Below are positions 24,475-48,767 of a stretch of DNA of 64,000 nucleotides, piece by piece. A program made the translations under genes and the position numbers. The stretch comes from Candidatus Spongiisociaceae bacterium (GTDB taxonomy: Bacteria > Actinomycetota > Acidimicrobiia > Spongiisociales > Spongiisociaceae). The notes under the pieces were generated by a model. It did not search any database and was not told the DNA's origin. It worked only from the letters and a program-made list of their open reading frames with translations. The stretch spans positions 1,184,001-1,248,000 of the forward strand of contig OZ241841.1 in the NCBI GenBank assembly GCA_965202665.1. Reading direction: 5' to 3'. The number at the start of each line of letters is the position of its first letter. Within the stretch, counting starts at the first letter, position 1.

Positions 24475-25610
24475 CCCTACCTTTGTCTTATCGGCTTTGA
24501 GTTTATTCTTGGCCGGTCGCTCGGCATAGCGGGCAGGGCTGTCCCTCCCTTGTCATGCGGATGAGGCGATCGCGCCGGTGAGCGTACCAAGTAAGCGACT
24601 TCGGGAAGGAACCGGAGACGAAGGGCGATCGGCCGCAGATAGGAGTGTTGGCGGGTGTGGATGTGGGCAAGGAACGACATCGGGCGCAAGCCCTGACCGC
24701 GGACGGGGAGCCGCTGTTTGAGGGTTCGGTCGGCAACGACCCGGCCGCGGTGGAGGAACTGCTGGACCAGGTGGTGGCCGCCGCCGGGGAGGAACATACC
24801 CCGTTGGTGGTGGTGGATATGATCTCCGGCGGGGCGGTGTTGCTACTGGCGGCCACTGAACGGCGGGGGATACCGGTGGCTTATGTGACCGGGTTGCGGA
24901 TGCGCCGAGCCGCCCAACTATACGACGGCACGGCTAAAACGGATCCGAAAGACGCCTGGGTTCTAGCTGACTACGCCCGACGCAACCTCGACCGGCTCAA
25001 CGTCGTGCAGGCAACCGATCAGCAGTTGGCTCGTATGCGGGCGTTGAACGGACACGACGAAGACCTGGCCGCCGATCAAAAGGGGATCGTCAACCGTCTC
25101 CGGGAAGCGCTGCTCAGCACCCGCCCCGGCCTGGAACGGGTTATCGGCAACCGGTTGGCCAGTCCCGGAATCTTGGACGTTCTTCGTAAATATCCGACCA
25201 TCGGGCAACTGCGGCGAGCGGGCCGGGCCCGCTTTCCGCAACCTTATTCACAAACGGTCTCCCCGCCTGTCGGACAAAGCCGCCCCTCTTATCTGGGAAG
25301 CGGTGAAATCCCAACCCATGGAACTTCCCGCCGCGGAAGCCTGGGCCCAGATCATCCCCAACCTCGCCGACGCCCTCGACCGAACAGGCAACAAACGGCT
25401 CAAAAACGCCATGCACCAAGCCGCCTTCGTCGCCATCCGAAACGACCCCCACGCCCAACCCTGCCAAACCAAACGCGACCAAGGCAAAAACCACCGCACC
25501 GCCCCCCGCCGCCGTCACCCGCCGACACAGCACACATCATCCTCACCATGCTCAAAACCCAAACCCCCAACACCAACCCAACACAACTTGACAAACAGAC
25601 AGGAACACCC
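24475..25610 (+). mobile_element. IS110-family element, transposase frameshifted and internally deleted
   Basis: 24645 onward: GVDVGKERH...VVD...KTDPKDAWVLA (DEDD domain); remnant GNKRLKNAMHQAA; ~165-bp non-coding leader; TTGACA near the right end; poly-C on both flanks. Confidence 0.8.
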
Positions 25611-31537: not shown

Positions 31538-32308
31538 TCAGCCGCCGCGGCGGGGAAGGGCGCGGGTGGCGGGGTCTATAACATGCAGGTCAGGCAAAGT
31601 GTCAGCGGCTAAAACAGCGGGGCGGGCCCGGTTGGAAGGAGTCACAATCAGAACAGCCTCCATCGAGGCGCAACACGAGTGGGACGGCCCGCCGCATGCA
31701 AATCGGAGAGAACCCGGGTCGCCATCACCGCGAACGGCAACTGCGGATCCTTCATCATCAACAACGCCGGGAGAGCCCCCGCGTCTGACGGCCGGTGGCG
31801 CACAAATCGAACAGAACCCCCACCGCGAGCGGCGCGAACGGTAACTGCTGGGTCTGATTGACCAGGATGAATTCCCTTCCCCCCCCCCCCGCTTCTACCT
31901 GCGACGCGGGATCACCCGCGTCTGCTGACCTGCCGCCATCGTATGCAAATCCGGAAGCCGCCCCGTCGCCAACACCCCCGCCCTCGCCATATTCGACGGA
32001 CCCGTCACCATCAACCCCATCGCCGCTGGGGAACGACCCGGCACGCCTGCTGGGTTCCCACCCCGCAGAGATCGCTGATGACCCCGGTTGCGAGAGTCCC
32101 GAAGACCGCCTTGTTGGAAGGACAGGTGACGAGAATTCCCCAACCCCCCCCCCCGTTACCTCCGGCGCGTCACCGCCCTCGTCGGTTGCGCCGGGCCCCT
32201 CGCGCACAGATCCGGCAACAGATCCGCCGCCAGCACCCCGAACACCGACATCCCCGACGGACTCGGAATCAGAATCGCCGTCTCGCGAAAACCCTTGCCC
32301 CCCCCCCC
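31538..32308 (-). repeat. Array C: six ~125-bp TRD-tip cassettes with three poly-G tracts (32298-32308 G11, 32144-32154 G11, 31879-31890 G12)
   Basis: Cassette peptides AILIPSPSGMSVFGVLAADLLPDLCARGPAQPTRAVTRRR*, GILVTCPSNKAVFGTLATGVISDLCGVGTQQACRVVPQRRWG*, GLMVTGPSNMARAGVLATGRLPDLHTMAAGQQTRVIPRRR*, FILVNQTQQLPFAPLAVGVLFDLCATGRQTRGLSRRC*, ALLMMKDPQLPFAVMATRVLSDLHAAGRPTRVAPRWRLF*, AVLIVTPSNRARPAVLAADTLPDLHVIDPATRALPRRGG*. Confidence 0.88.
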
Positions 32309-35300
32309 TAACGGAATTTAGGTCCGGCATTGCGTCGGACGCAAACGCAGTGTCAGATGTCCCCCTACCTGAACTGTTGGAAAAAGATATCGCCTCATCA
32401 ACTCTCTCCGCAGGAAACATCTTAGATATAGTTCGAACCGATGAAAGAATCAAGTCATCCTCATACAACCACAACTTTGTGAAAGGCCGATACAACACCT
32501 CCCGAATACGCCTCTCGTCAAACACAAGTCTCCTACCTTTCTTCAAAGTAGCCTTCAAAGCACCAGTCCATTTTATGGCACTCAGCGGAGAATCAAGCGT
32601 AGACTCTTCAGCAAAGGTTTCACCATAAATTTCCACACGAGCCAACACATCATTGTATTCTTCAATAAGACGTTGAACCTTTATCTCCAATCGTTCTCTG
32701 CTAAAAGAATATACGTAAGTATCAAGATTAGTGGCCAAACCCAACGCGTGAGAATGAACAGCGGCATTTCGATGTTTCTTAACACCGCATATTGGTAAAA
32801 GCTCCTCAAAGGTGCCATCAGACAGATTCACCCAATCATGCTTTGGGGTTACGGGTACTTCTTCTAAATCAGGATTAGTTATATCTTCCATTTCTTCTAG
32901 CCACTGCCATTTTTCCTCTCTGCTATAGTAATCTGGCACCTGAGCATAAAATAGTGAGGCGGGCACTCCTATTCTTTTAGTCGGATTTCTAACTAAAAAG
33001 GATATTTGAACACCGCTACGAGAGCCGCCTTTTCCACTTATTGCATCAAATAACACATCACCTTCCTTAGCTCGCTCTTCTCCTGATTTATAAGCATTAC
33101 CCCGTAAGTTAACAACATAGATAGATGTAAAATCGTCCCTTACTGCAGCCCTGGCTCCAGCCAAAGAAGGGCCGTCTGTCAAAGAATTAGGGTGCACCAA
33201 GCCAATAATAGAAGGGTGGTCTCCATGCAAAATTCTATCAGAGCACCAACGCAAAGCTTTGATATATAAATTTTGTCCAGCCTTGCCAATACCACGGCAG
33301 GTAATCTCCTTATGTTTAGCTCCGTACGTGTCAGAAACTCGATCACTGATAACAGGATATTCTAGCTTGGTAGTGTCGTCACCTGCTTGCTTAGCACCAG
33401 CCGACCAGGGGGGGTTAGCTAAAATTACAGTCATCGGAGTACTATCCTGTTCATATCGACCTTGGATATTTTCTCTGAAAGTATCAAGTTCCTCCTGCTT
33501 CGGGCTACTGAGGAAAGTATCAGTTAGTACTATTTTTGTATAAGGCTGATATATCACTTCTTTCTCAAGTCTTTCGGAGTCTCGGGAATGCTTTGCTTCC
33601 TCGATTTTGATAGCTGCTATATAGTAGGCCAATAGAATAAACTCGTTAGCATGTAGTTCATTTTCATACTTGCGGTCCAAATCTTCATAACTGATTAGAT
33701 AGTTATCATCCTCGTCCTTCATTTCAATTAGACGCGCTAGGTAAGTACCAGTACCAGCGAAAGGGTCTAAAATGTGTAGATTTTCGCTCCCAATGGACCT
33801 CCCGAACTCTTTCTGGCAAATGGCGGCTGCCGAACGGATCATGAAGTCCACTATCTGTACCGGTGTATACACAATCCCCACCCGTTTTACCGTTTCTTTC
33901 ATCGCTGACTGGAAGAATCCATCGTAGATTGCCCGTAGGATATCCACCTTTTCCGCGCTGGTTACCGCTCCGGCAAAAGCGGCCTCCATCTGCCGATAAG
34001 CGCGGGTCAGGGGTCGTAATTCCTCCTCAAATGACACCTTCAACGCCTGGAAGGTTTCAAGAAATCTTTCTATCTCTTGACTGACTGGATTCTGTTTGGC
34101 GAAGCCGCTACCAGCCAACATAACATCAAACACCGGGATGGTCACCACATGCTGGGCGATCATCTCCTGCGCTTGAGCGGAGGCGACATGATCACCAATA
34201 GAATCACGAATGCCCGCCAAAAACCTTTGAAAGGCATCCTTAGCAGGACCACCCTCAGCAATCAGGTTATTTATACGGGTCTGCACCTGACGGCAAATGT
34301 CCGCCGCCCGCTCACCCCAGCGGGGATACATATGCTTGTCGCCGACGATTTCCACCACCTTGGAGGCGATTTCTTGGTTGAGTTGGAACTGCAACTGTTG
34401 TTGCACCCTCTTGCCATTTCCTTCATCAACTCCCGGTCCAACCGGGAAGGAGCACACTCGCAACGGAGCGTTCTTCGCCCAGGCGGAGGCGTTGCTGACG
34501 TAATACTCCATCCGGGAATCATGGGAGCGCAAAGCCCGCACTACCTCCCACACAGTATGAAAGTCGGAAGCTTCCAACTTCTTCTTCGGGTCGGCGTCCT
34601 CCGGAACCACCACCGGAATGATGATGTAACCCTTGCGTTTGCCGGGGGCGGTGCGCATCGCCCGGCCCACCGCCTGAGTGATATCCACCGTGGAAGTACG
34701 ACTGTTCAGAAATATAACCGCGTCCAAGCTAGGAACATCCACTCCTTCGGTGAGCACCCTCGCGTTACTGAGAATCCGGCACACCGGCCTCCCATCCCCC
34801 TCCGCTCTCACATCCCTCAGTTGCTCTAAAAGGTCGGTGCGTTCCGCGGCCGGAGTGGAACCGTCAATATGATTTACATCCAACCTCAGGAATTCTGAAA
34901 AATCCTTCCCCCCCCCCCCATCTCCAACCATGTTGCCCTTTTGCCGGGTCAGGGCATCCACCACTTTCGGCCACACCATGGCCGCCGTCTGTGAAGTGCG
35001 CACCAAGTTGGTGAAAGCGATAGCCGAACGGGCTGGCTCTCCGCCGTCGGCAAAAATCTGGCCGGGAAACCGACCCGGTAAAACCTCGGTGGTGGCGGGC
35101 GTTGCCAGGGCATCCCAGCATCCGGCCAGCTTCACCGCATCATCCAAAGCTAGATTAGTAGTTTCATGCACCAAAACCTCATGGGACCACCCAGCGTTGG
35201 CTAGGGACTGCATATAGGCCTCTTCCGTAGCGGTTATTACCAGCACCTCGTAGTCGGACAGGTAGCCGTCTTCAACCGCCTCACTGAACTCCATCTCGTA

Positions 35301-36506
35301 AAACCGCTCCCCAAAAGTCGCCGTGTCGTCCATGCTGTAGGAATCCCCTTCGAAACCGGGGGCCTCTATCTTCTTCCTCTGCCTAGCCGTAAAAACACGC
35401 GGAGTGGCCGTCATATATAAACGTTTGCCGCCCCGGATGTGGGCGTCTTCGTGCACTATGCGGAACGGGGACACCCCCAAACCTTCTTTGGATTCTTCTA
35501 TGCCGGTGGTGCGGTGGGCTTCATCGCAGATGATCAAATCAAACCCCCACCCCTCCGCGGCCCGGTTTTGCGCTTCGGCAATTCTGGGGGAGGACTGATA
35601 CGTGGAAAACACCACCTGCATCGCATCCCCCGGCACCGGCTTCGCCAACTCTTTAGCCAACCGCGCCGGGTCGGTGGTTACCGGAATAGCCAACTCCGTT
35701 AAATCACCGGCCGTGTCCGCCTGCGCCGAGCCTTTCCGCCCCGCCGTGGTGTCAGAGCACACCCCCAGATAACGCAACGGCATCTCCCGTTGCCGTGACC
35801 ACTCCCGCATCGTCTGCCCAATCAACGCAATCGACGGCACCAAATACAACACCCGGCCACCCAAACCGGCCACCTTCTCCGCCGCCCGTAACGCCACCAA
35901 CGACTTACCCGTCCCACACGGCAAAATCAACTGCCCCCGATCCACATCCCGAAACTTCTCCGCAATATCCCGCACCGCGTCCTGCTGAAAACCATGCAAC
36001 CGATGCTTAGGAGCCGGTGCGATCTCCAGCAGGTCGGGGGTTTCCGCGAACTCCCGCCAGTCATCCACCCACCGGTCCATCTCACTGGTATGCAACACCT
36101 CGCACCGCGGCTCCGCCTTACGCAACTTCGCCAACCCCACCTGGGAAACCCTGGCCGTCGCCACCAACAGGCGAGAAGCGAAATCAGCCGTCCCCGACGC
36201 CCCCAGGAAACTGTCCACCCCGGCGGTGGAAACCTCCGTAGCCCAAAACTTGCACTGGATAGCGCACAACCCGCCCCCGTAAGCCGGAGTTTGCCGGGCC
36301 ACAATATCAACCCCAATGTCCCGCCCGTACCCCCGTTCTTCCCGCTCCGGCCACTCACCCCACAACCACACCTCCTCAAAACGCTCCCGACCATACTCAC
36401 CCGGATGAGCCCGCAACGCCCCCGCCACCAACCGCTCAAACCGCCGCCCCGCCCTCCACGGATCATCCCCCCCAAAACCCCCCAACACCCCATCCAAAAA
36501 CGGCAT
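31758..36506 (-). CDS. Split Type ISP R-M enzyme copy C; as assembled it reads through to cassette 4
   Basis: DIGVDIVA...AIQCK, LPCGTGKS, DEAHRTTG, TEGVDVP, DPFAGTG, ANPPW, YRPFTK; lacks the constant C-terminal domain; internal G12 at 34908-34919. Confidence 0.9.
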   Translation of the reverse strand: MPFLDGVLGGFGGDDPWRAGRRFERLVAGALRAHPGEYGRERFEEVWLWGEWPEREERGYGRDIGVDIVARQTPAYGGGLCAIQCKFWATEVSTAGVDSFLGASGTADFASRLLVATARVSQVGLAKLRKAEPRCEVLHTSEMDRWVDDWREFAETPDLLEIAPAPKHRLHGFQQDAVRDIAEKFRDVDRGQLILPCGTGKSLVALRAAEKVAGLGGRVLYLVPSIALIGQTMREWSRQREMPLRYLGVCSDTTAGRKGSAQADTAGDLTELAIPVTTDPARLAKELAKPVPGDAMQVVFSTYQSSPRIAEAQNRAAEGWGFDLIICDEAHRTTGIEESKEGLGVSPFRIVHEDAHIRGGKRLYMTATPRVFTARQRKKIEAPGFEGDSYSMDDTATFGERFYEMEFSEAVEDGYLSDYEVLVITATEEAYMQSLANAGWSHEVLVHETTNLALDDAVKLAGCWDALATPATTEVLPGRFPGQIFADGGEPARSAIAFTNLVRTSQTAAMVWPKVVDALTRQKGNMVGDGGGGKDFSEFLRLDVNHIDGSTPAAERTDLLEQLRDVRAEGDGRPVCRILSNARVLTEGVDVPSLDAVIFLNSRTSTVDITQAVGRAMRTAPGKRKGYIIIPVVVPEDADPKKKLEASDFHTVWEVVRALRSHDSRMEYYVSNASAWAKNAPLRVCSFPVGPGVDEGNGKRVQQQLQFQLNQEIASKVVEIVGDKHMYPRWGERAADICRQVQTRINNLIAEGGPAKDAFQRFLAGIRDSIGDHVASAQAQEMIAQHVVTIPVFDVMLAGSGFAKQNPVSQEIERFLETFQALKVSFEEELRPLTRAYRQMEAAFAGAVTSAEKVDILRAIYDGFFQSAMKETVKRVGIVYTPVQIVDFMIRSAAAICQKEFGRSIGSENLHILDPFAGTGTYLARLIEMKDEDDNYLISYEDLDRKYENELHANEFILLAYYIAAIKIEEAKHSRDSERLEKEVIYQPYTKIVLTDTFLSSPKQEELDTFRENIQGRYEQDSTPMTVILANPPWSAGAKQAGDDTTKLEYPVISDRVSDTYGAKHKEITCRGIGKAGQNLYIKALRWCSDRILHGDHPSIIGLVHPNSLTDGPSLAGARAAVRDDFTSIYVVNLRGNAYKSGEERAKEGDVLFDAISGKGGSRSGVQISFLVRNPTKRIGVPASLFYAQVPDYYSREEKWQWLEEMEDITNPDLEEVPVTPKHDWVNLSDGTFEELLPICGVKKHRNAAVHSHALGLATNLDTYVYSFSRERLEIKVQRLIEEYNDVLARVEIYGETFAEESTLDSPLSAIKWTGALKATLKKGRRLVFDERRIREVLYRPFTKLWLYEDDLILSSVRTISKMFPAERVDEAISFSNSSGRGTSDTAFASDAMPDLNSVRGGGQGFSRDGDSDSESVGDVGVRGAGGGSVAGSVREGPGATDEGGDAPEVTGGGVGEFSSPVLPTRRSSGLSQPGSSAISAGWEPSRRAGSFPSGDGVDGDGSVEYGEGGGVGDGAASGFAYDGGRSADAGDPASQVEAGGGGREFILVNQTQQLPFAPLAVGVLFDLCATGRQTRGLSRRC

Positions 36507-37207
36507 TACCGCTGATCTTCCAACGAGGGGGGCAGGCCGGCGATTATCTCCGCCGAACGGACGCTCACATAAACCAACCGCCGCAAATGGCGAATCAACT
36601 CATACGGATCCTTCTCCCACCGCCACCACCCATTCGGATCATCAGTGATGCCAGACGGCTTATCATGCTTATGCCGCAGACTGTCGATCGCCCAATCCAA
36701 CGGCGACCGGCCCGACACCGTATACTCCTGAGCCCGCTCCGGGATGCCGACCAACCGGCACCGCTCGTTGATATGCAACTCGGTGAGGTCTTTCTTCCAT
36801 TCACCGTCCTCGTCCTTGACTTTGTTCCACCGCATCTGTTTCTGAATCCGGTAGGCCTTCTGGTCAGCCCCCTGGTCGGGGAAACCGTCCACCAAAACAT
36901 CCACTCCCTCATACTCAGGACAGTTTTCGTATCCGATGTGCAAATCCATCAGTTCCCGCCCCGCCACCCGGAAGGCCTCAAAATCAGCGGCCAAAGGCAC
37001 ACGGGGCAGATTGCGTTGCAAATCGTTGCGGTAGCGTTTCCGCCAATCGGGGGCGTGCATCACCCCGTACAGATACTCCCAAATGTCGTCCTTGGTAATG
37101 GAAGGGTCCTCATAGCGGGTTTGGAACTCGCTCAGACACCAGTCGGTGATGTTGTCGGTGTCCTCCGTCATACCCTCCAAATCCAAGTCCAAACCCTGAT
37201 CCATCAT
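36506..37207 (-). CDS. Stand-alone Type ISP C-terminal domain (copy 2)
   Basis: DNITD...ITKDDIWEYLYGVMHAPDWRKRYRNDLQRNLPRVP...AGRELMDLHIGYE...VSGRSPLDW aligns with the last ~230 aa of 7756-12591; TAATG overlap with copy C; likely start MMDQ at 37207. Confidence 0.88.
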   Translation of the reverse strand: MMDQGLDLDLEGMTEDTDNITDWCLSEFQTRYEDPSITKDDIWEYLYGVMHAPDWRKRYRNDLQRNLPRVPLAADFEAFRVAGRELMDLHIGYENCPEYEGVDVLVDGFPDQGADQKAYRIQKQMRWNKVKDEDGEWKKDLTELHINERCRLVGIPERAQEYTVSGRSPLDWAIDSLRHKHDKPSGITDDPNGWWRWEKDPYELIRHLRRLVYVSVRSAEIIAGLPPSLEDQR

Positions 37208-37252
37208 TGCGGCGGCCTTCCCTTCTCCCAACCCCACAAAGGGGAGTACTCT

Positions 37253-37281
37253 ATTCTACCCGGCGTTTCCGCGCCCGCCAA
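37253..37281 (-). promoter_or_regulatory. Candidate sigma70-type promoter for the C-domain/large-gene operon
   Basis: TTGGCG-N17-TAGAAT on the minus strand; the counterpart upstream of 43595 is TTGGCG-N18-TAGGAT. A second candidate, TTGTTG-N17-TATATT, lies further upstream. Confidence 0.4.
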
Positions 37282-37559
37282 ATTTTTCGCCTTCTCTAGC
37301 CCACCCTCCCACCCCCCGCCCGCCCACCCGAAAATATAAAGGGTTTTTTCGGTTTCAACAAGGGGGTCGTTTTCGGGATATGACAAAATCCCTGGTAGAA
37401 GGGCTCTTTAGGGCTAAGAATATTTTTCGCGAGGCGGGTGCTGGGTCGGGACATTTTGCGCCTCGTAAAGGAGAAGGGCCTTTTTGGATTTGGAATATGT
37501 TTCGCGAGGTGGGATTCCGGAAGCAAACACCTCAGCCGGGGCGGAGCCAAACTTCTCCC

Positions 37560-37969
37560 CCGATCTCTGTCGCAGGCAAGAGGGGAGGACGCGGACAACG
37601 GAGTCGCGGGCATATAACCCGATTCTCGTTTCCGGCAATTTCTGTCACAAGCAAGGCAGGACAGGACGGCGGGGGGCGCAGGCATACCATCCAAATTCCC
37701 ATTCCTGATATTTCCTACCACAAACGGAAGGGAACACGAACAGCAGGGTCCGCAGGCATATCGTCCGGTTCTCGTTTCTGGTTTTTCCCCTCACAAGCGA
37801 GGGAGGACACGAACGGCGGGGGGCGCAGGCATACCATCCAAATTCCCATTCCTGATATTTCCTGTCACAAGCGAGGAAGGGCGCGGGCGGCGGGGGCGCG
37901 GGCATATCATCCGATTCTCGTTTCCGATATTTCCTACCAAGAGCGGGGGAGGGCGCGGGTGGCGGGGTC
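37560..37969. repeat. Degenerate tandem repeat, ~73-bp unit, 5-6 copies
   Basis: Units start CGC(A/G)GGCATA at about 37605, 37677, 37751, 37824 and 37897; units 2 and 4 share cgcaggcataccatccaaattcccattcctgatatttcct. Confidence 0.85.
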
Positions 37970-38700
37970 AATTACGTGCAGGTCGGGCAAGGCGTCAGTG
38001 GCTAAAACGGCCGGGCGGGAACGGTTGGAGGGAGCCACGATCAGAATCGCCTCCATCGAGGCGCAACACGGGTGGGGCGGCCCGCCGCATGCAAATCGGA
38101 GAGAATCCGGGTCGCCATCACCGCGAACGGCAACTGCGGATCCTTCATCATCAACAACGCCGGGGGAGCCCCCGCGTCTGGCGGCCGGTGGCGCACAAAT
38201 CGAACAGAACCCCCACCGCGAGCGGCGCGAACGGTAGCTGCTGGGTCTGATTGACCAAGATGAATTCCCTTCCCCCCCCCCCCGCTTCTACCTGCGACGC
38301 GGTATCACCCGCGTCTGCTGACCTGCCGCCATCGTATGCAAATCCGGAAGCCGCCCCGTCGCCAACACCCCCGCCCTCGCCATATTCGACGGACCCGTCA
38401 ACATCAACCCCGTCGTCGGGGAACGACCCGGCACGCCTGCTGGGTTCCCACCCCGCAGAGATCGCTGATGACCCCGGTTGCGAGAGTCCCGAAGACCGCC
38501 TTGTTGGAAGGACAGGTGACGAGAATTCCCCAACCCCCCCCCCCGTTACCTCCGGCGCGTCACCGCCCTCGTCGGTTGCGCCGGGCCCCTGGCGCACAGA
38601 TCCGGCAACAGATCCACTGCCAGCACCCCGAACACCGACATCCCCGACGGACTCGGAATCAGAATCGCCACCTCGTGAAAACCCTTGCCCCCCCCCCCCC
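37934..38700 (-). repeat. Array B: six TRD-tip cassettes with three poly-G tracts (38688-38700 G13, 38534-38544 G11, 38272-38283 G12)
   Basis: Same six cassettes in the same order as array C; cassette stops at 38546, 38404, 38288, 38151, 38041 and 37934. Confidence 0.88.
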
Positions 38701-41700
38701 TTGATTGAGGTCTGGCACCACCCCAGCGGCGGACAGATTATCAGACGCACCCCTCATAGAACCACTCGCCACATCAATCCCCTCAACCTCCGCCTCACGG
38801 GGGAACATCGCGGACACCGTTTTCACCGACGAAAGAATCAGGTCATCCTCATACAACCACAACTTCGTATAAGGCCTATACAACACCTGCCTAATACGAC
38901 CCTCATCAAACACAATACGCCTGCCCTTCCGCAAAGACCCCTTCAACGTATCCGTCCATTTAATCGCATCCAACCTAGTATTTGCAGTAACTTCCCCAAT
39001 GTCCTCCCCATGTATCTCTACTAAATCCAATGTCCTGTCATAAATATCGATCAGCCGCTTAACCTTTTGAATAAGCATTTCACGGCTGAACGAATAAACA
39101 TATGTGTCACAAGTAGTTGTTACACCACGAGCATGCTTAGCGACAGCTACTTGCCCATTTTCCTTTTGAATATCACAAACCGCAAGCAGATTATCAAATG
39201 TTCCATCCGACAGATTTACCCAATCGTGGCGGGGATTTACCGGAACTTCCTCTAGCTGTGAGCTCGTCACATCCCAAATTTTTTCCAACCATTCCCACTT
39301 ATCATCCAAACTCATATAATCAGGAACTTGCGCATAATGAAGGTTGGCAGGCTGGCTGATGTCTTTAGATGGATTTCTTACCAGAAAAGTAATTTGAACA
39401 CCGTTGCGTGTTCCTTCGCCAAAAACGGTGTCTCCTTCTCGTTGCCTTTCATCACCCTGTTTAAAGGCGTTGCCTCGCAGATTAATCACATAGATGTCAG
39501 TGAACTCATCCCGTAACGTTCCCCGAACACCGGCCAACGAAGTGCCGTCGGCCAAAGAGTTAGGATGGACAAGCCCGACAATAGCGGGGTGGTCGCCGCG
39601 TTGCGTATTCGGTAAAATCCGATCCGTGCACCAACGCAAGGCCTTCACATACAGATTACCCATAGCGTTGCCTCCGGGCGACTGTCCTACCACTTCTTTA
39701 TGTTTGGCTCCGTAGGTTTTCTCCACCCGTAGGCCAACATCGTGATATTCAAGATTAGGGTTGTCATCGCCCGCCAACTTCTGACCGGATGACCAAGGCG
39801 GATTGGATATTATCACAGTCATCGGAGTAGCATCCTGTTCAAGACGAACTCGTATATTGTCGCCTAAAACATCAAACCCTTCCTGCTCAGGACTAGCCAA
39901 CAACGTATCAGTAAACACTATTTTTTTGAAAGGGTCGTATTTGACTTTACTATCAGACTTTTCTCCATCCCGAAAATGCTTAGATTCTTCTATTTTGAGA
40001 GCGGCGATGTAGTAGGGTAACAGGATAAACTCGTTGACATGCAGTTCTTGTTGATATTTGCGGTCCAGATCTTCAGTGCTTATAAGGTAGTTGCCATCTT
40101 CATCTTTCATCTCTATCAGACGAGAAATGAAAGTCCCGGTGCCAGCGAAAGCATCTAAGATATGTATATTTTCACTACCTATGGATCTCCTGAACTCTTT
40201 TTGACAGATAGCAGCCGCTGAGCGTATCATAAAGTCCACTATCTGCACCGGAGTGTATACTATCCCAACCCGCTTCACCGTTTTTTTCATAGCCGCCTGG
40301 AAAAACCCCTCATAGATTTCTCGCAGAATATCCACCTTTTCGACACTAGATACCGCCCCGGCGAATGCGGCCTCCATTTGTCTGTAGGCGCGGGTTAGAG
40401 GTCTTAGCTCCTCCTCGAACGATACATTCAACTTACGGAATTTTTTGAGTAGCCTTTCTATTTCTTTGCTTACTGGATTCTGCTCGGAGAAACCGCTTTC
40501 AGCCAGCATTACATTGAACACCGGGATGGTGACCACATGCTGAGCGATCATCTCCTGAGCTTGCTCTAAAGTAACGTGATTCCCAACCGACTGACGGATG
40601 CCTTTCAAGAAACGTTGGAAGGCATTCTCGGCAGGGCCGCCTTCGGCTATCAGGTGGTTGATACGGGTTTGCACCTGGCGGCAGATGTCAGCCGCGTGCA
40701 CTCCCCAGCGGGGATACATTTGCTTGTCGCCGATGATTTCCACCACTTTGGATGCAATTTCTTGGCTGAGTTGGAACTGCAACTGATGTTGCACCCGCTC
40801 GTCGTAACCTTCTTCTTCAACATCCCGGCCCAACCGGCAAGTGACCACCCGTAGCGGAGCGTTTTTCTTCCAGGCGGAGGCGTTGCTGACGTAATGTTCC
40901 ATCCGGGAGTCGTGGGAACGCAAAGCCCGCACCACCTCCCACACAGTCTGAAAGTCGGAGGCTTCCAGCATCTTCTGCGGGTCGGCGTCCTCCGGGACTA
41001 CTACAGGAATAATGATGTAGCCTTTGCGTTTGCCGGGGGCGGTGCGCATCGCCCGGCCCACCGCTTGGGTTATATCCACCGTGGAAGTGCGGCTGTTCAG
41101 AAAAAGCACCGCATCCAAGCTGGGAACATCCACCCCTTCGGTTAGCACCCGGGCGTTGCTGAGAATCCGGCACACCGGCCTCCCGGATTCACCCCCGCCC
41201 CCTGCCCTCCCCCTCAGTTGCTCTAGCAGATCAGTCCGTTCCGCGGCCGGAGTGGAACCGTCAATATGATTTACATCCAACCGCAAAAATCTATTTTCGC
41301 CACCCCCCCCCCCGTTCCCTACCAAGTCTCCCCTTTGCCGAGTCAGGGCGCCTACCACTTTCGGCCACACCATGGCAGCCGTCTGCGAGGTGCGCACCCG
41401 GTTGGTGAAAGCGATGGCCGAACGGGCAGGCTCGCCGCCCTCGGGGAAAATCTGGCCGGGAAACCGACCCGGCAAAACCCCGGTGGTGGCGGGAGTGGCC
41501 AGGGCATCCCAGCATCCAGCCAGTTTCACCGTATCGTCCAAAGCCAAATTGGTGTCCTCGCGCACTATCATCTCGTGAGCGAAATCGGCGTTGGCCAAAG
41601 ACTGCAAATAAGCCTCGGCGGAGGCGGTGATAACCAGCACCTCGTAGTCGGACAGATAACCGCCTTCCACCGCCTCGCTGAACTCCATTTCATAAAACCG

Positions 41701-42906
41701 TTCCCCGAAAGTCGCCGCGTCGTCCATGCTGTAGGAGTCCCCTTCGAAACCGGGGGCCTCTATCTTCTTCCTCTGCCGAGCGGTGAACACACGAGGGGTG
41801 GCCGTCATATACAAACGCTTGCTACCCCGGATGTGGGCGTCTTCGTGCACTATGCGGAACGGGGACACCCCCAGCCCTTCTTTGGATTCTTCGATGCCGG
41901 TGGTGCGGTGCGCCTCATCGCAGATAATCAAATCAAACCCCCACCCCTCCGCGGCCCGCTGTTGCGCCTCGGCAATTTTGGGGGAGGACTGATACGTGGA
42001 AAACACCACCTGCATCGAATCCCCCGACACCGGCTTAGACAACTCTTTAGCCAGCCGCGCCGGGTCGGTGGTTACCGGAATAGCCAACTCAGTTAAATCA
42101 CCGGCTATGTCCGCCTGCGCCGAGCCCTTCCGCCCCGCCGTGGTATCCGAGCACACCCCCAGATAACGTAGCGGCATTTCCCGTTGCCGGGACCATTCCC
42201 TCATCGTCTGCCCAATCAACGCAATCGACGGCACCAAATACAACACCCGGCCACCCAACCCCGCCACCTTCTCCGCCGCCCGCAACGCCACCAACGACTT
42301 ACCCGTCCCACACGGCAAAATCAACTGCCCCCGATCCACATCCCGAAACTTCTTCGCAATATCCCGCACCGCGTCCTTCTGAAACCCATACAACCGATGC
42401 TTAGGAGCCGGTGCGATCTCCAGCAGGTCGGGGGTTTCCGCGAACTCCCGCCAGTCATCCACCCACCGGTCCATCTCACTGGTATGCAACACCTCGCACC
42501 GCGGCTCCGCCTTACGCAACTTCGCCAACCCTGTCCGGGAAACCCGCGCCGTCGCCACTAACAGGCGCGATGCAAAATCAACCGTGCCCGACGCGCCCAA
42601 GAAACTGTCCACACCGGCGGTGGAAACCTCCTTTTCCCGGAACTTGCATTGAATGGCGCACAACCCGCCCCCGTAAGCCGGGGTCTGGCGGGCCACAATA
42701 TCAACCCCGATATCCCGCCCGTATCCCCGTTCTTCCCGTTCCGGCCACTCACTCCACAACCACACCTCCTCAAACCGCTCCCGCCCGTACTCACCCGGAT
42801 GAGCGCGCAACGCACCCGCCACCAACCGCTCAAACCGCCTCCCCTGAACCACCGACTTCGGATCATCCGCCACCAAACCTCGCAACACCTCCTGCAAATA
42901 CGGCAT
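38659..42906 (-). CDS. Split Type ISP R-M enzyme copy B; as assembled it ends in its own tip (PDLNQGGGGARVFTRWRF*)
   Basis: Same motif set (AIQCK, LPCGTGKS, DEAHRTTG, DAFAGTG, SNPPW); close paralog of copy C; internal G11 at 41303-41313. Confidence 0.9.
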   Translation of the reverse strand: MPYLQEVLRGLVADDPKSVVQGRRFERLVAGALRAHPGEYGRERFEEVWLWSEWPEREERGYGRDIGVDIVARQTPAYGGGLCAIQCKFREKEVSTAGVDSFLGASGTVDFASRLLVATARVSRTGLAKLRKAEPRCEVLHTSEMDRWVDDWREFAETPDLLEIAPAPKHRLYGFQKDAVRDIAKKFRDVDRGQLILPCGTGKSLVALRAAEKVAGLGGRVLYLVPSIALIGQTMREWSRQREMPLRYLGVCSDTTAGRKGSAQADIAGDLTELAIPVTTDPARLAKELSKPVSGDSMQVVFSTYQSSPKIAEAQQRAAEGWGFDLIICDEAHRTTGIEESKEGLGVSPFRIVHEDAHIRGSKRLYMTATPRVFTARQRKKIEAPGFEGDSYSMDDAATFGERFYEMEFSEAVEGGYLSDYEVLVITASAEAYLQSLANADFAHEMIVREDTNLALDDTVKLAGCWDALATPATTGVLPGRFPGQIFPEGGEPARSAIAFTNRVRTSQTAAMVWPKVVGALTRQRGDLVGNGGGGGENRFLRLDVNHIDGSTPAAERTDLLEQLRGRAGGGGESGRPVCRILSNARVLTEGVDVPSLDAVLFLNSRTSTVDITQAVGRAMRTAPGKRKGYIIIPVVVPEDADPQKMLEASDFQTVWEVVRALRSHDSRMEHYVSNASAWKKNAPLRVVTCRLGRDVEEEGYDERVQHQLQFQLSQEIASKVVEIIGDKQMYPRWGVHAADICRQVQTRINHLIAEGGPAENAFQRFLKGIRQSVGNHVTLEQAQEMIAQHVVTIPVFNVMLAESGFSEQNPVSKEIERLLKKFRKLNVSFEEELRPLTRAYRQMEAAFAGAVSSVEKVDILREIYEGFFQAAMKKTVKRVGIVYTPVQIVDFMIRSAAAICQKEFRRSIGSENIHILDAFAGTGTFISRLIEMKDEDGNYLISTEDLDRKYQQELHVNEFILLPYYIAALKIEESKHFRDGEKSDSKVKYDPFKKIVFTDTLLASPEQEGFDVLGDNIRVRLEQDATPMTVIISNPPWSSGQKLAGDDNPNLEYHDVGLRVEKTYGAKHKEVVGQSPGGNAMGNLYVKALRWCTDRILPNTQRGDHPAIVGLVHPNSLADGTSLAGVRGTLRDEFTDIYVINLRGNAFKQGDERQREGDTVFGEGTRNGVQITFLVRNPSKDISQPANLHYAQVPDYMSLDDKWEWLEKIWDVTSSQLEEVPVNPRHDWVNLSDGTFDNLLAVCDIQKENGQVAVAKHARGVTTTCDTYVYSFSREMLIQKVKRLIDIYDRTLDLVEIHGEDIGEVTANTRLDAIKWTDTLKGSLRKGRRIVFDEGRIRQVLYRPYTKLWLYEDDLILSSVKTVSAMFPREAEVEGIDVASGSMRGASDNLSAAGVVPDLNQGGGGARVFTRWRF

Positions 42907-43595
42907 TACCGCTGGCCTTCCAACGAGGGGGGCAGGCCGGCGATTATCTCCGCCGAACGGACGCTCACATAAACCAACCGCCGCAAATGGCGAATCAACT
43001 CATACGGATCCTTCTCCCACCGCCACCACCCATTCGGATCATCAGTGATGCCAGACGGCTTATCATGCTTATGCCGTAGGCTGTCGATGGCCCAATCCAA
43101 CGGCGACCGGCCCGACACCGTATACTCCTGAGCCCGCTCCGGGATGCCAACCAACCGGCACCGGTCGTTGATATGCAACACGGTGCGGTCAACCTTCCCC
43201 TTGCCGTCCTCGCCTTTGGCCCGCTCCCACCGCATCTTCTTCTTAATCCGGTAGTCCTCCGGGTCGGGGGAACCGTCCACCACAACTTCCACCCCTTCAT
43301 ATTCGGGACAGGTCTCGTATCCGATGTGCAAATCCATCAGTTCCCGCCCCGCCGCCCGGAAGGCCTCAAAGTCGGCGGCCAAAGGCACCCGGGGCAAATT
43401 GCGTTGCAAATCGTTGCGGTAGCGTTTCCGCCAGTCGGGGGCGTGCATCACCCCGTACAGATACTCCCAAATGTCATCTTTGGTAATGGAAGGGTCCTCA
43501 TAGCGGGTTTGGAACTCGTTCAGACACCAGTCAGTGATGTTGTCGGTGTCCTCCGTCATACCCTCCAAGCCCAAACCCTGGTCCTGGCCCATCAT
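42906..43595 (-). CDS. Stand-alone Type ISP C-terminal domain (copy 1)
   Basis: Near-identical to 36506-37207; AGGAGG RBS; TAATG overlap with copy B. Confidence 0.88.
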   Translation of the reverse strand: MMGQDQGLGLEGMTEDTDNITDWCLNEFQTRYEDPSITKDDIWEYLYGVMHAPDWRKRYRNDLQRNLPRVPLAADFEAFRAAGRELMDLHIGYETCPEYEGVEVVVDGSPDPEDYRIKKKMRWERAKGEDGKGKVDRTVLHINDRCRLVGIPERAQEYTVSGRSPLDWAIDSLRHKHDKPSGITDDPNGWWRWEKDPYELIRHLRRLVYVSVRSAEIIAGLPPSLEGQR

Positions 43596-43889
43596 TCCGG
43601 CAAACCCTCCCTCCTCCTACGCCCCCCGCCCGGGGGAACGCCCTATCCTACCCCGGCGTTTCCGCACCCGCCAAATTTTTTTCAAACCTGCTCGAGCCCA
43701 CCCTCCCACCCCCCGCCCACCCACCCGAAAATATAAAGCACTTTTTCGGTTTCAACAAGGGGGTCGTTTCCGGAGGATGGCAAAAGCCCTGCTAGAAGGG
43801 CTTTTTTGGCTAAGAATATTTTTCGCGAGGCGGGATTCTAAAACAAACACACCATTCAGGGCTAGAACAATCTACTCCTCCGACCTCGT

Positions 43890-44506
43890 TCAAAAACGGG
43901 GAAGGGCGCGGGTGGCAGGGTCTATCACGTGCAGGTCGGGCAAAGTGTCTGTTGCTAAAACGGCCGGGCGAGCCCGGTTGGAAGGAGCCACAATCAGAAT
44001 CGCCTCCACCGAGGCAGAACCCGGGTGGGGCGGCCCGACGCGAGCACCGCGAACGGCAACCGCTGGGGCTGATTGGCCAAGACCGATCCCACCCGCTACC
44101 TCCAGCGCAGTATCACCCGCGTCTGCTGACCGGCCGCCATCGTATGCAAATCCGGAAGCCACCCCGTCGCCAACACCCCCGCCCTCGCCATATTCGACGG
44201 ACCCGTAAACATCAGCCCCGTCGCCGGGGAACGACCCGGCAGGCCTGCTGAGTTCCCACCGCGCAGAGATCGCTGATGACCTGGGCTGCGAGAGTCCCGA
44301 AGACTGCCTTGTTCGACGGACAGGTGATGAGAATTCTTGGCTCCCCCCCCCCCCGCTACCTCTAGCGCGGTATCACCCTCGTCTGTTGCGAACCCTTGAT
44401 CGCCGCCAGGTCCGTCAGCCATGCCGCCGCCAGGGCCTGGAAAATCATATTGTTGCCGTTGCTGATCAGAATCACCTTCGCGTGACGACCCTTGCCCCCC
44501 CCCCCC
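43890..44506 (-). repeat. Array A: four intact TRD-tip cassettes plus one deleted remnant, two poly-G tracts (44495-44506 G12, 44343-44354 G12)
   Basis: VILISNGNNMIFQALAAAWLTDLAAIKGSQQTRVIPR*, ILITCPSNKAVFGTLAAQVISDLCAVGTQQACRVVPRRRG*, LMFTGPSNMARAGVLATGWLPDLHTMAAGQQTRVILRWR*, a cassette 4/5 chimeric remnant, AILIVAPSNRARPAVLATDTLPDLHVIDPATRALPRF*. Confidence 0.85.
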
Positions 44507-47500
44507 TAACTGAGTTAAGATCTGGTTGCACATCGTGCGCGATGGGGGTATCGACTGTACCTCGACCGGATCCGCTGGTGAAAGAAACCGCTTCAGTGAT
44601 TTCGCTATGGGGGAACAGTCGGGATGCGCTTCTCACCGATGATAAAATACGGTCATCCTCGTACAACCATAGTTTAGTAAACGGCCGATACAGTACTTGG
44701 CGGATACGAGCAGGGTCAAATACTATTTTTCTGCCTCTTCGCAGTGAATCTTGGATACGGGCAATGCTCCGTAGATATAGTGAATCCTCCACCAACTTCT
44801 CAATCCATTGTTTAGTTGGATGAGTATGGTTTCTTACTTGCAGAAGATACGCATCGTATTCGTCTAATAAATCTCTTATTTTATCTTCCAGGGCTTGCCG
44901 ATTGTATGAGTAGGCCATGAAATCACAGGCGGTAGCTATTCCCAGCGCACTCTTTTGAGAAACTGCTGGTTCTTGATTTGCACCTACAGTGCATATAGGC
45001 ACCATTTTTTCATATGTTCCATCAGACAGGTTTACCCAATCATGTTTTGAGGTCACCGGTACTTCTTTCAATTGATCACTGGTTATATCGCCTAGAAACT
45101 CTAGCCAGTCCCACTTTTGATTTAGTTTTAGGTAATCCGGCACTTGAGCGTAACGGAGAATGGCAGGCCCTTTCAAGTCCTTGCGAGGATTTCGAACCAA
45201 AAATGTTATCTGTGTCCCAAGCATGGCACCAGCTCCGAACACTTTGTCTCCTTCTTTTTGCCATTCTTCACCCGCTTTTTTGGCATTACCTCGTAGGTTA
45301 ACTACATAGATATCAGTAAATTCATCACGAAGAGATGCTCTCATTCCAGCTAAACTGGTCGCATCAGTTAAAGAATTGGGGTGAACAAAACCAATCATTT
45401 TCCCTCGGTTAGCAGGTTCTTTATCTAGTTGATCGGTTGCCCATCTTATAGCCTGTACAAATAAGTTTCCAGCGGCATTTCCACCAAGTCTTAGACCAAG
45501 AGCTTTATGAGATTTATTATAAGTTTCCCTAACTCGCTCTGCTACTTTAGGGAACTGTAATTTGCCAACTTGTCCAGTTCTATTGGCCCCAGAACCCCAA
45601 GGTGGGTTACTAAAAATAATATCCACAGGAGTCTGATCCAAACGGGCCGCTCTTCCAACATTACCCTCAGCATCATCTAATTCGCGTTGTTGACCCCGTC
45701 CACCCCCCAAATTGCCGGAAAGGAAAGTATTCTGCAAAACCAGCCCCTCCCAGGGTTGGTAGTCAGGATCCTGTTCATCACGCCGGTTAATTCTCTTTCG
45801 GTAAGTTTCCTCCACTTGGAGGGCGGAAACATAGTATGCGAGCATAACGATTTCTGATCCATGCATATTTTTCCATACATTCTCTAGCGCGTTGTCGGGT
45901 ACAATAGGTTTTCCATCCCTGCCAAAGGCATCTAGTAAACGCGTGGGGAAGGTACCGGTTCCACAGAACGGATCATAGAACTGAACATATTGATCAGAAA
46001 TATGAACACCAAATTCTTTTTCACAGATAGCGGCAGCCGATTTAATAATAAAATCAACTATTTGAATAGGTGTGTAGACTATACCAAGTTGTTTTATCGC
46101 GTTAGGCATAGCTTCCTTAAAGAATCCATCATATATTTCCCGAAGGACATCTACCTTTTTATCGGCATCTCCAGCTGCATCAAACACCTCTTTCATGCGA
46201 TCATAAGCTCGTTGCAGAGGTGCACAATCACCTTGAAAATTTATTCCCTGCATTTCCAGCGTTTTGCGAAGAGTGTCAATACGTCGACTAATAGGATTCA
46301 CCTGTGCAAAATGCCCGTGGAACATTGCATCGAAAACGGGAATAGTTACAATATGTTGAGCGACCATTTCTTCGGTACTATCGGGATCAACCTGACCACC
46401 CATTACCTTCCCTAACTCATAAACTAACTCTTCAAATGCTTGTTGACACACCGGATCGGTAAGAGAAGATTTTAGTCGCGAGCGAACGTCGGCGCAAACC
46501 TTTGCCGCCTGCTGACCCCATCGAGGCCACATTTTCTTGTCTCCAACTTTATCTACTATTACCGATGCCAACTGCTGGGTGAGTTGAAATCGCAACTGTT
46601 CCACTTCCCGTTGGGTTCGTTTGGTTTTTTTCCCATTGCCAATAACCCTTACATTGAACTTGCCTTTTAGCTGGCATATATCGGGGTCGGACACCCAATA
46701 GTCAACGCGGTCATCGTGCGATCGTAAAGCGCGAACAACGTTGGCTACGTTGGCGAATTCGCTTTGTGCAAGTTTCCGGTTAGGATCTTCTTCTTGCTCA
46801 TCTATCACAACGGGAATAACTATGTGCCCTTTAGTTTTGTGATCAGTGGTACGCATCGCCCGCCCTACCGCTTGAGTAATGTCTACTTCCGATGTTTTAG
46901 GATCTAAGAAAATAACCGCATCTAGGCCGGGAACGTCTACCCCTTCAGTTAGAACTTTCACATTTGTCAAAATCTCACAAATGGGCGATTCCGCATCCTC
47001 ATCTGTTGTCGGTGGTGCATTAGTAACAGTTCGCAACCGGCTTATACGTTTAGTGCGTTCCGCAGCGGGAGTATTGCCATCCACATGATTGACTTTTAAC
47101 TGAAGATAACGGTTAGGTTCTTCGTCAATAGCCGATTGGCGGGAAGCCAGCTCCGCCCATACCATGGCTACTTCTCGGCTTCGGGGAATTTTGTTAGCGT
47201 AAAGCAGGGCGGTACGGGTGGGCCACCCTAATTTTATATCTGTTTTTCCGGCAGGGCGGTGAGGGTCCACCTTTTCAGAATATGGTGTGGACAGGGCATC
47301 CCAAGCACCAGCTAATCGTACTCCATCGCTTAATGACAAGGCTGGCTCTCGCTCTCCAGTTTCAGGGTTTTTCTTACCTTGAGGTTCGTAACCCGGTATG
47401 TCCGCCCATTCCATACCTATATGATCGGAATGGGCCGCCTGCCATCGAAAGCCACGACTAGCTGCTACTACATGTATCTGATAGTCAGACAGAACCGGGC

Positions 47501-48767
47501 GACCATCCGTACGTAGGTTGATCTTCTCTGAAGTTTTACTATCAATCCTTTTACCATCCACAGCCTCCGCGAAAGACAGCTTATAGAAGACCGGCCCGAA
47601 CACACCTTCATCATCCATAGAATAAGATTGCCCATCATAATGCTTATTTTCTATACGACTCTTTTGATGTTCAGTAAAAACCCGGGGGGTAGCGGTCATA
47701 AAAAGCCTTTTGCGACAAGGGATTTGATCATTGCTCAAACCAGTCTGAAATAAGCTACCTTCAGTTTTGTTAATGCCGGTAGTTCGATGCGCCTCATCAA
47801 AAAATGCTAAATCGAACATAAACCCTGGAATAGATTTGATAGATTCTGCGACCATCGGTGACGACTGATATGTACAGAATACGGCTCGCGTCGTTCTCTT
47901 CGCAATGGGCTTTTTAAGAGCGATCGTTAGATGATTGGGATCAGTAGTTACAGGAGCAAATAGTTCGGTGAGCCGACGACGGTCTTCACGACCAACAGAA
48001 CTATCGGAACACACCGCCAAAAACTCTAGCGGCAGAGTTTTGTTGGCGGACCATTCTTTCATACTTTGATCCATCAATGCTAAAGAAGGTACTAGAAATA
48101 ATACAGTTGCTCCCCCCCCCCCCCGTTCCGTCGCCCATAACGAGACTAGCGTCTTTCCGGTACCACATGGCAAAATTAGCTGTCCTCGATCAAAGTCTCT
48201 AAACCCATTATATATTTTATCGATAGCGTCCCGTTGAAATGGATGCGGAGTTTTTGGATGGCTTCGGATAACTAACTTGTTAGGCTCGTCGATAAGAGTA
48301 CGCCAGTCTTCCACCCACCCGTCCATTTCAACAGTGTGCAGAACCTTCCCATCTCGATGGCGGTGTAATGCTTCCTCCCCTTTTCGAGAAACCGGAGCGG
48401 TGGCCACCAACAAAATAGACCGGAACAGATCCGATGAAGGGCGGGAATGTGTGATAAAACGGTCCACCGCTCTGGTAGATATCTCGTTGCGATGAAACTT
48501 GCACTGAACAGCGCACAGGCCGCCACCGTACGCATCGGTTTGCTCCGCCACCAAATCTATACCATCGTCGCCAGCCGCGTACCCGTGCCTCTCCCGATCC
48601 GGCCACTCCCCCCACAACCAAACGTCCCGGAACCGATCCTTGCCCCATTCTCCCGGGTGGGCTAGAAAGGCGGCTTTAACTAATTCCTCAAAGTCACGAC
48701 CTTTTTCCACGGCGGTTGCCGTACGGTCTTCTATCATCTCCAATGCCTCAGTCAAATAACCCATCAT
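44472..48767 (-). CDS. Split Type ISP R-M enzyme copy A (divergent); ends PDLNSVRGGGARVVTRR*
   Basis: AAGGAGG RBS before MMGY; DDGIDLVA...AVQCK, LPCGTGKT, DEAHRTTG, DPFCGTG, SNPPW; internal G13 at 48112-48124. Confidence 0.9.
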   Translation of the reverse strand: MMGYLTEALEMIEDRTATAVEKGRDFEELVKAAFLAHPGEWGKDRFRDVWLWGEWPDRERHGYAAGDDGIDLVAEQTDAYGGGLCAVQCKFHRNEISTRAVDRFITHSRPSSDLFRSILLVATAPVSRKGEEALHRHRDGKVLHTVEMDGWVEDWRTLIDEPNKLVIRSHPKTPHPFQRDAIDKIYNGFRDFDRGQLILPCGTGKTLVSLWATERGGGGATVLFLVPSLALMDQSMKEWSANKTLPLEFLAVCSDSSVGREDRRRLTELFAPVTTDPNHLTIALKKPIAKRTTRAVFCTYQSSPMVAESIKSIPGFMFDLAFFDEAHRTTGINKTEGSLFQTGLSNDQIPCRKRLFMTATPRVFTEHQKSRIENKHYDGQSYSMDDEGVFGPVFYKLSFAEAVDGKRIDSKTSEKINLRTDGRPVLSDYQIHVVAASRGFRWQAAHSDHIGMEWADIPGYEPQGKKNPETGEREPALSLSDGVRLAGAWDALSTPYSEKVDPHRPAGKTDIKLGWPTRTALLYANKIPRSREVAMVWAELASRQSAIDEEPNRYLQLKVNHVDGNTPAAERTKRISRLRTVTNAPPTTDEDAESPICEILTNVKVLTEGVDVPGLDAVIFLDPKTSEVDITQAVGRAMRTTDHKTKGHIVIPVVIDEQEEDPNRKLAQSEFANVANVVRALRSHDDRVDYWVSDPDICQLKGKFNVRVIGNGKKTKRTQREVEQLRFQLTQQLASVIVDKVGDKKMWPRWGQQAAKVCADVRSRLKSSLTDPVCQQAFEELVYELGKVMGGQVDPDSTEEMVAQHIVTIPVFDAMFHGHFAQVNPISRRIDTLRKTLEMQGINFQGDCAPLQRAYDRMKEVFDAAGDADKKVDVLREIYDGFFKEAMPNAIKQLGIVYTPIQIVDFIIKSAAAICEKEFGVHISDQYVQFYDPFCGTGTFPTRLLDAFGRDGKPIVPDNALENVWKNMHGSEIVMLAYYVSALQVEETYRKRINRRDEQDPDYQPWEGLVLQNTFLSGNLGGGRGQQRELDDAEGNVGRAARLDQTPVDIIFSNPPWGSGANRTGQVGKLQFPKVAERVRETYNKSHKALGLRLGGNAAGNLFVQAIRWATDQLDKEPANRGKMIGFVHPNSLTDATSLAGMRASLRDEFTDIYVVNLRGNAKKAGEEWQKEGDKVFGAGAMLGTQITFLVRNPRKDLKGPAILRYAQVPDYLKLNQKWDWLEFLGDITSDQLKEVPVTSKHDWVNLSDGTYEKMVPICTVGANQEPAVSQKSALGIATACDFMAYSYNRQALEDKIRDLLDEYDAYLLQVRNHTHPTKQWIEKLVEDSLYLRSIARIQDSLRRGRKIVFDPARIRQVLYRPFTKLWLYEDDRILSSVRSASRLFPHSEITEAVSFTSGSGRGTVDTPIAHDVQPDLNSVRGGGARVVTRR

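Follow-up and report, generated by a model that had tools for sequence, protein, structure and literature searches.

Four Type ISP genes in a sponge symbiont genome

We analyzed a 64,000 nucleotide stretch (the window) of the genome of Candidatus Spongiisociaceae bacterium (GCA_965202665.1, contig OZ241841.1, positions 1,184,001 to 1,248,000 of the forward strand), which holds four Type ISP restriction-modification (R-M) genes: one intact copy and three split bodies, here called A, B and C (Table 1). The source genome is a single contig of 2.77 Mb, 94% complete with 64% G+C, and no Type ISP bodies other than these four were found in it. By Pfam matches, all four bodies show the order Mrr nuclease, superfamily 2 (SF2) helicase, coupler, gamma N6 methylase and target recognition domain (TRD), with intact nuclease, Walker A, DEAH and NPPW motifs. 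They match the solved enzymes of PDB 4XQK and 5FFJ; the intact copy aligns from residue 18 to 1609 with LlaBIII, at an E value of 4e-261.

The intact copy is a single polypeptide, as Type ISP enzymes are, unlike A, B and C, for which positions 165-339 of PF18135 are encoded by separate genes, a split also found in relatives. A, B and C are, by sequence, a split form predicted to work like Type ISP enzymes. The separate genes for the C-terminal part of the TRD are referred to here as guide genes. Because the guide gene of the closest relatives lies upstream of its body and abuts it, we paired the first guide gene with C and the second with B; downstream and divergent placements also occur in other relatives. 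Body A has 47% G+C, the other bodies 51-54%, and the array at the 3' end of C, described below, 66%.

Table 1. Type ISP bodies, guide genes, poly-G tracts and tip cassettes of the window (aa, amino acids)
Feature	Coordinates	Strand	Description
Intact Type ISP gene	7756-12591	+	1611 aa; Mrr nuclease, SF2 helicase, coupler, N6 methylase, full TRD; no tip array
Split body C	31758-36506	-	1582 aa as assembled; passes three tip tracts and ends in cassette 5
First guide gene	36506-37207	-	Separate TRD C-terminal gene; paired with C
Split body B	38659-42906	-	1415 aa; assembled state uses its own Loop VI end
Second guide gene	42906-43595	-	Separate TRD C-terminal gene, 87% identical to the first; stop overlaps start of B; paired with B
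Split body A	44472-48767	-	1431 aa counted from ATG; no upstream guide gene
Internal G13 tract, intact copy	8475-8487	+	Codon 240 of 1611, loop after Walker A; +/-1 base gives 293-295 aa
Internal G12 tract, C	34908-34919	- (C12 on +)	Codon 530, second RecA domain loop; +/-1 base gives 539-547 aa
Internal G11 tract, B	41303-41313	- (C11 on +)	Codon 532, second RecA domain loop; +/-1 base gives 538-544 aa
Internal G13 tract, A	48112-48124	- (C13 on +)	Codon 215, loop after Walker A; +/-1 base gives 224-255 aa
Tip array of C	31538-32308	-	Own end 32269-32295 and six cassettes
Tip tracts of C	32298-32308 (G11), 32144-32154 (G11), 31879-31890 (G12)	-
Cassettes of C	32156-32281, 32011-32142, 31895-32020, 31758-31877, 31648-31773, 31538-31660	-
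Tip array of B	37934-38700	-	Tracts 38688-38700 (G13), 38534-38544 (G11), 38272-38283 (G12); own end and six cassettes
Tip array of A	43890-44506	-	Tracts 44495-44506 and 44343-44354 (G12 each in the assembly); own end and four cassettes

Each gene carries an internal G tract

All four genes contain an internal run of 11 to 13 G residues at the positions given in a preliminary description of this DNA, and all four reading frames are open through the run. The two sites that description had distinguished were confirmed: the tracts of the intact copy and A lie in the loop after Walker A, and those of B and C lie mid-helicase in a loop of the second RecA domain, both loops being variable. In each gene, a one-base change at the tract brings a stop within 4-51 codons, upstream of the methylase. 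This is the long simple repeat within a coding sequence, with truncation dependent on its length, that characterizes a simple sequence repeat (SSR) phase-variable R-M gene. Repeat lengths giving both ON and OFF alleles were also found between samples and genomes, as set out below, with one-base error not fully excluded.

A tree of reading frames at the 3' ends of A, B and C

On the 3' side of Loop VI of A, B and C lie arrays of short repeats of one TRD segment, which we call cassettes, interspersed with further G runs. In C and B these runs form a ternary tree: depending on the frame, the first run leads to the gene's own end, to cassette 2 or onward; the second leads to cassette 3, to cassette 4 or onward; and the third leads to cassette 5, 6 or 7. 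Seven ends can be reached in C, seven in B and five in A, each a different copy of the hairpin and Loop VI, and the out-of-frame readings of the skipped cassettes are stop-free linkers. The third tract of A has been lost, and approximately 43994-44095 is a collapsed hybrid of two cassettes that lacks Loop VI and is reached by no frame path. Separate translation of the cassettes as peptides was considered as a general rule and rejected, as no start codon is present in C's cassettes 2, 3 and 5. The preliminary description had credited every enzyme with an OFF state plus 5-7 ON states. Counted as frame-reachable C-termini, the figure holds for the three split genes, but the intact copy has a single ON state. 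The very large combinatorial space it foresaw would come to 2 x 8 x 8 x 6 = 768 states for the four genes, with only two states from the intact copy.

Sponge symbionts belonging to two phyla retain the frame tree. A scan of species genomes, overlapping a first set of 60 relatives (17 with a match), identified 48 loci in 46 records, belonging to Acidimicrobiia of several families, Caldilineaceae and Dehalococcoidia; many are named sponge symbionts, and the closest named record is Candidatus Spongiisociaceae. Paths ended in a cassette or in the gene's own end in 94 of 96 cases over 16 loci and in 299 of 322 over the 48 loci (220 of 228 once six loci containing gaps or contig ends are excluded). 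The path count does not include G002, and 4-base repeats were missed by node detection in L102, L104 and L132, so that their paths are undercounted. When the cassette proteins were held fixed and synonymous codons were redrawn under three usage tables, leaving out G002 and G012, the full tree was kept in no more than 1.4% of 1000 trials at 14 of the 15 loci. The nodes of relatives are built from poly-G, poly-C, (GA)n, (CA)n or 4-base repeats, and the 42 assembled states listed use many different terminal cassettes. The first node precedes the resident segment in several relatives; any active form there must therefore use a frame-selected cassette.

The largest clean tree seen, in L093, has four nodes and nine paths, eight of which reach a cassette or the own end. 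Tandem split Type ISP loci with a tip array for each body, as in this window, occur in L095, L097 and L098. Two unsplit Type ISP relatives (L075:9906 and L087:6993) have a run in or near Loop VI at which the other frames only truncate, a possible starting point of the arrays. In the window, from the end of the last cassette of B onward (37600-37967), there are four diverged copies of a 72-76 nucleotide unit, perhaps decayed duplications of a cassette end.

Cassettes correspond to a base-reading loop

Aligned by way of the intact copy, the cassette segment corresponds to LlaGI residues 1344-1384 and LlaBIII residues 1334-1374 (LlaGI numbering is chain numbering plus 164). In LlaGI, the hairpin at 1347-1358 is structural and Loop VI, at 1365-1374, reads base pair +3; the readers of +3 are H1368, G1372 and Q1373 in LlaGI and N1360 in LlaBIII (PMC4872093). 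The loop mapping was checked on these four residues, and the position of H1368 is occupied among the cassettes by N, H, C, A or K.

At 50% distance, the 274 cassette hits from 53 loci group into 18 classes, ten of which have at least eight members; these conserved classes differ in the residue at the position that reads +3. Cassettes of the same class at different loci share 65% identity, versus 39% for cassettes within a locus. Duplicates of a class at the same locus number five against 57 expected (minimum 41 in 2000 shuffles), and the order of cassettes is permuted between loci. A single-sequence fold of the C-terminal part of C had a predicted local distance difference test (pLDDT) score of 32; with a 43-sequence alignment, the resident segment and linker scored below 50 and the cassette approximately 45-52.

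Tract lengths differ between samples and relatives

Public runs holding this DNA, 15 in all from sponge and marine metagenomes, were compared as contigs. At the internal tract of A, sample X3 is one base shorter than the assembly (G12 versus G13), X1 agrees with it, and the contigs of X4 break at the run, giving only a hint of mixed lengths. The internal tracts of C and B have the same length in X1 as in the assembly. That of the intact copy is G13 in X2 and X3 and G14 in X4, while X6 has a three-base deletion and two substitutions that remain in frame. At the tip tracts of A, X1 has one base more at both, and X3, X4 and X5 share an extra base at 44494; with short-read contigs longer by one base there, the single-base tract lengths of the assembly are not fully reliable.

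Orthologues of the B/C type have G11 in frame in G009, G10 out of frame in G013, and no tract in G001 and G004. The A-type orthologue of G001 has G12, out of frame, and the intact-type orthologues have G12 in frame in G001, G11 out of frame in G009 and, at the same loop in G004, (GA)19 out of frame. Over the 48 loci, a repeat outside the tips is present in 39 (25 in the body, four in the guide gene and ten at the 5' end), seven have none and two are not assessable. The body repeats lie near residues 215, 440, 530, 950, 1097 and 1290 of B; altogether, the ON/OFF repeat is found at about eight sites, and also in the form of (GA)n. A frameshift is present at 14 of the 25 body tracts, and 13 of those 14 bodies have no other break. 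The bodies together show 17 breaks, of which 14 coincide with a G9-12 run and three are insertions, and a G9-12 run accounts for 14 of the 15 breaks that change the frame. Read by eye, with L098, L108 and L138 left out, the tract sites are scattered over the protein tree, which suggests many separate gains of the internal tract. Six of seven metagenome loci, examined for tracts only, also have one. A 2.2 kb insertion (L123:2087-4342) stands where sister loci hold the ON/OFF tract.

The differences in tract length between samples, together with the frameshifted relatives, support the ON/OFF phase variation proposed in the preliminary description, and it is very probable that the internal tracts are slipped-strand switches.

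Long G/C runs form a genome-wide contingency set

The window contains 13 G or C runs of at least 11 bases: the four internal tracts, eight in the 3' arrays of A, B and C, and one at 24465-24477. None lies in a metabolic gene, in agreement with the preliminary description; the C13 at 24465-24477 lies three bases 3' of the stop codon of a DUF2277 gene. Genome-wide, there are 96 runs of length 8, one of length 9, none of length 10 and 75 of at least 11. If these 75 were scattered at random, all four Type ISP genes would be struck with p ~2e-4. The 75 runs were classed from the open frames on either side plus Pfam and PADLOC matches, because the codon-model gene caller overlooked genes richer in AT, three of the four Type ISP bodies among them; a motif census of methylases was too insensitive to supply a denominator. 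Twenty-four runs are promoter spacers, 12 lie in the four Type ISP genes, 20 belong to other defence genes and 19 are elsewhere, nearly all of these intergenic.

The 24 spacer runs share one conserved TTGACA...TAGCGT-like promoter with G11-13 between the -35 and -10 elements, which often precedes large or S-layer-homology (SLH) surface genes (for example in L062, L063, L064 and L066); short-tract copies of this promoter were not found with the pattern used. The 20 runs in other defence genes, within the gene or at its start, affect Type III and Type II methylases, hsdM, hsdS (twice), Type IIG, three DUF1156/HmaB methylases, HmaA-like and other SNF2 helicases, SspB and two PDC-M33A genes. At least five of them split a gene whose two halves match the same model. 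Genome-wide, no gene matching a housekeeping family was found to contain a long run; one G33 falls within a called frame that has no Pfam match. Further repeats in the genome are (GT)12 at 459313, (GA)28 at 699889, (TGTTG)12 at 464909 and G33 at 640404.

Some of these defence genes have two runs. A Type I hsdS gene (L045:3408-4585; genome positions 1870408 and 1871045) has two C runs, one just 3' of the start and out of frame as assembled, the other between the two TRDs, a pair of the ON/OFF and specificity type. Two Type III mod-like genes each have one run near the start and one internal (L031:4301 and 4568; L055:3138 and 4737). Next to the second is a DUF222-HNH gene (L055:5041-6315) similar to one directly 3' of the intact Type ISP gene in the window (12732-14036).

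NucS is present in this 94% complete genome, in which neither MutS_I nor a MutL domain was found; NucS leaves insertions and deletions uncorrected (PMC8228993). Long runs concentrate in defence genes and promoter spacers, and we conclude that the tracts are not unique to the Type ISP genes; they are members of a contingency set that extends over the defence genes and surface-gene promoters of the whole genome. Long G tracts did not prove to be a common and invariant feature of the genome, the outcome that would have spoken against the preliminary description.

Comparison with known systems

Multi-state specificity and ON/OFF states are both familiar in R-M systems from Type I hsdS shufflons and Type III mod phasevarions, where the choice among several states is made by recombination or inversion. 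In the Type ISP genes described here, DNA rearrangement would be unnecessary. The accessible portion of a 2025 review (PMC12707154) names only ON/OFF slippage and recombination.

The closest known system is JHP1272 / HP1353-HP1354 of Helicobacter pylori (Hpy99XIV, HpyAXVI; PMC3936762), which has the same two-switch logic, ON/OFF plus two specificities. As there, an upstream ON/OFF tract is combined here with a downstream tract that appends a duplicate of a base-reading TRD segment. The H. pylori system is a Type IIG enzyme without a helicase, with one extra module and two specificities. Here, the enzymes are helicase-bearing Type ISP proteins with at most three or four nested three-way nodes and 5-7 ends, the linkers are alternative frames of other cassettes, and the TRD's C-terminal half is encoded by a separate gene. 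For Type ISP genes, the available sections of the same paper describe frameshifts not caused by repeats, or one authentic frameshift (PMC3936762).

LlaGI and LlaBIII (PDB 5FFJ, 4XQK; PMC4872093) share the domain order and motifs, and the cassette is the counterpart of their hairpin and Loop VI. They are single polypeptides with one Loop VI, whereas A, B and C are split and have arrays, and their aligned loop after Walker A lacks the glycine run. Cj0031 of Campylobacter jejuni, a Type IIG enzyme, resembles the present genes in ON/OFF phase variation of a fused restriction-methylation gene, altering methylation and phage restriction; one specificity and no cassette array are described in the part of the report at hand (PMC4889913). 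Late poly-G tracts giving alternative C-termini in three frames have been reported in Helicobacter canadensis, where, as far as the consulted text goes, the ends mostly comprise few residues without assigned function and the modules are neither homologous nor nested (PMC2823697). No description of a nested array or of SSR-switched Type ISP genes was found in the literature outside subscription journals, REBASE and the supplement of PMC4872093 (a 552-enzyme alignment that may bear on novelty).

A proposed two-tier switch and its alternatives

Given these observations, we put at about three in four the probability that the split genes make up a two-tier Type ISP system, ON/OFF plus a frame-chosen loop end. 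In the first tier, slipped-strand changes in the length of the internal G11-13 runs would switch the gene ON or OFF; in the second, the reading frame set at the 3' G runs would decide which copy of the base-reading loop, out of five to seven, ends the enzyme. Moving the remainder of the TRD to a separate gene may have freed the C-terminus for the array, and body and guide piece would reassemble. As has been proposed for H. pylori JHP1272, the terminal cassette would fold into the TRD core and replace the resident segment there. Slippage would be reversible within clones, and different ends would give different motifs; because the lineage has NucS and no detectable MutS or MutL, tract slippage is expected to be fast. 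It is likely, judging from the sequence, that the tips provide a heritable choice of specificity. We also lean towards a wider reading, in which the split Type ISP family is widespread in sponge symbionts, its nested repeats serving as base-3 digits that address a triple-coded loop array. One gene would dial up to seven specificities (eight in one relative) plus OFF, all without DNA rearrangement, and the approximately ten conserved cassette classes would, for a single position in the recognition site, form a natural plug-in code.

Several points weigh against a two-tier switch. One-base differences at long G runs may be sequencing or consensus errors, the assembly itself differing at the tips of A, and for this reason we take the length differences between samples as support, not proof; the evidence consists of contigs, so that mixed lengths within one population are not directly seen. 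The related genomes are not independent, and the cassette profile was built from loci overlapping the test set. One path in G023 ends in a truncated cassette, and G011 is weak in the codon resampling, its tree being kept in 2-5.5% of trials. At a looser cut (0.55) the cassette classes merge and same-locus duplicates rise to 68. In both solved enzymes, Loop VI reads no base pair but +3; therefore, seven distinct targets need degenerate or wider reading. There are three bodies and two guide genes to share. Finally, seven of the 46 assessable loci have no ON/OFF repeat, so that the first tier is not obligatory. Apparent joints linking C, B and the intact gene in sample contigs were short or paralogous matches and were not used.

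It is unlikely that only the ON/OFF tier works, with the cassettes as silent donors for recombination or gene conversion and tip tracts that merely inactivate. Recombination has indeed acted on the arrays, as their permuted order between loci shows, and the arrays of B and C are near-identical. However, donors would not need the stop-free linker frames that have been kept, nearly all frame paths reach a complete cassette, and the cassette remnant of A, which is without its tract, has decayed. The variety of cassettes in the assembled states, and the relatives whose first node lies before the resident segment, likewise speak against donors. Transcriptional or ribosomal slippage would instead have each cell make mixed ends, with a leaky OFF state and an enzyme that is multi-specific, not phase-variable. 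It would ease self-restriction after a switch, and the contig data are compatible with leakiness; it is nonetheless quite improbable, as tract lengths differ at the DNA level between samples and genomes and the same G11-13 runs occur in the 24 promoter spacers, where DNA length alone can matter. A neutral origin is highly improbable. Under it, the internal tracts would be neutrally expanded microsatellites in loops that tolerate glycine, within genes that are dispensable, and assembly errors or early decay would explain the frameshifts of relatives. The tracts do lie in variable loops, the lineage seems to be without indel repair, and homopolymer errors are likely in some assemblies. Neutral expansion would not account for the length gap at 9-10 and peak at 11-13, the confinement of the runs to defence genes and promoter spacers, their repeated gain at different sites with different repeat units, or the 13 of 14 out-of-frame bodies that are otherwise unbroken.

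A different role for the first tier, suggested in the preliminary description, is that OFF shields the cell from self-cleavage while the tips switch. Type ISP cleavage requires two unmethylated head-to-head sites (PMC3553950), which makes a new specificity risky; a second switch is present in 39 of the 46 assessable tip loci, and a methylase-TRD fragment of an H. pylori Type ISP enzyme is active alone (PMC3936762). This role is decidedly improbable. A return to ON would meet the same unmethylated genome, exposing the same head-to-head sites as a direct switch. In A, B and C, no restart led by a Shine-Dalgarno sequence, from which a methylase-only product could be made, is found close to the tract; the intact copy offers one weak candidate, at codon 779. 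The same switch also occurs in intact genes that have no tips. In relatives it is located 5' of the gene, within the guide gene or within the methylase, and in the last position the tract can cut the methylase.

Implications for Type ISP enzymes and their host

By itself, an ON/OFF tract is a familiar device, which this case carries over to Type ISP genes and an uncultured sponge symbiont; the two-tier array, not the tract, is the unusual part. If the two-tier reading is true, frameshift switching of specificity is extended from two states, as in H. pylori, to seven, by DNA that has to remain readable in as many as three frames, that dozens of species have retained and that has been rebuilt from different repeat units. 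The structural study (PMC4872093) found no simple code by which Type ISP enzymes recognize their targets, and interchangeable Loop VI modules on one constant enzyme would make that question directly testable. The system also poses a sharp question for its host, an uncultured sponge symbiont with long G/C runs mostly in defence genes and surface-gene promoters: how a cell would survive when a restriction specificity turns on before the chromosome has been methylated for it.

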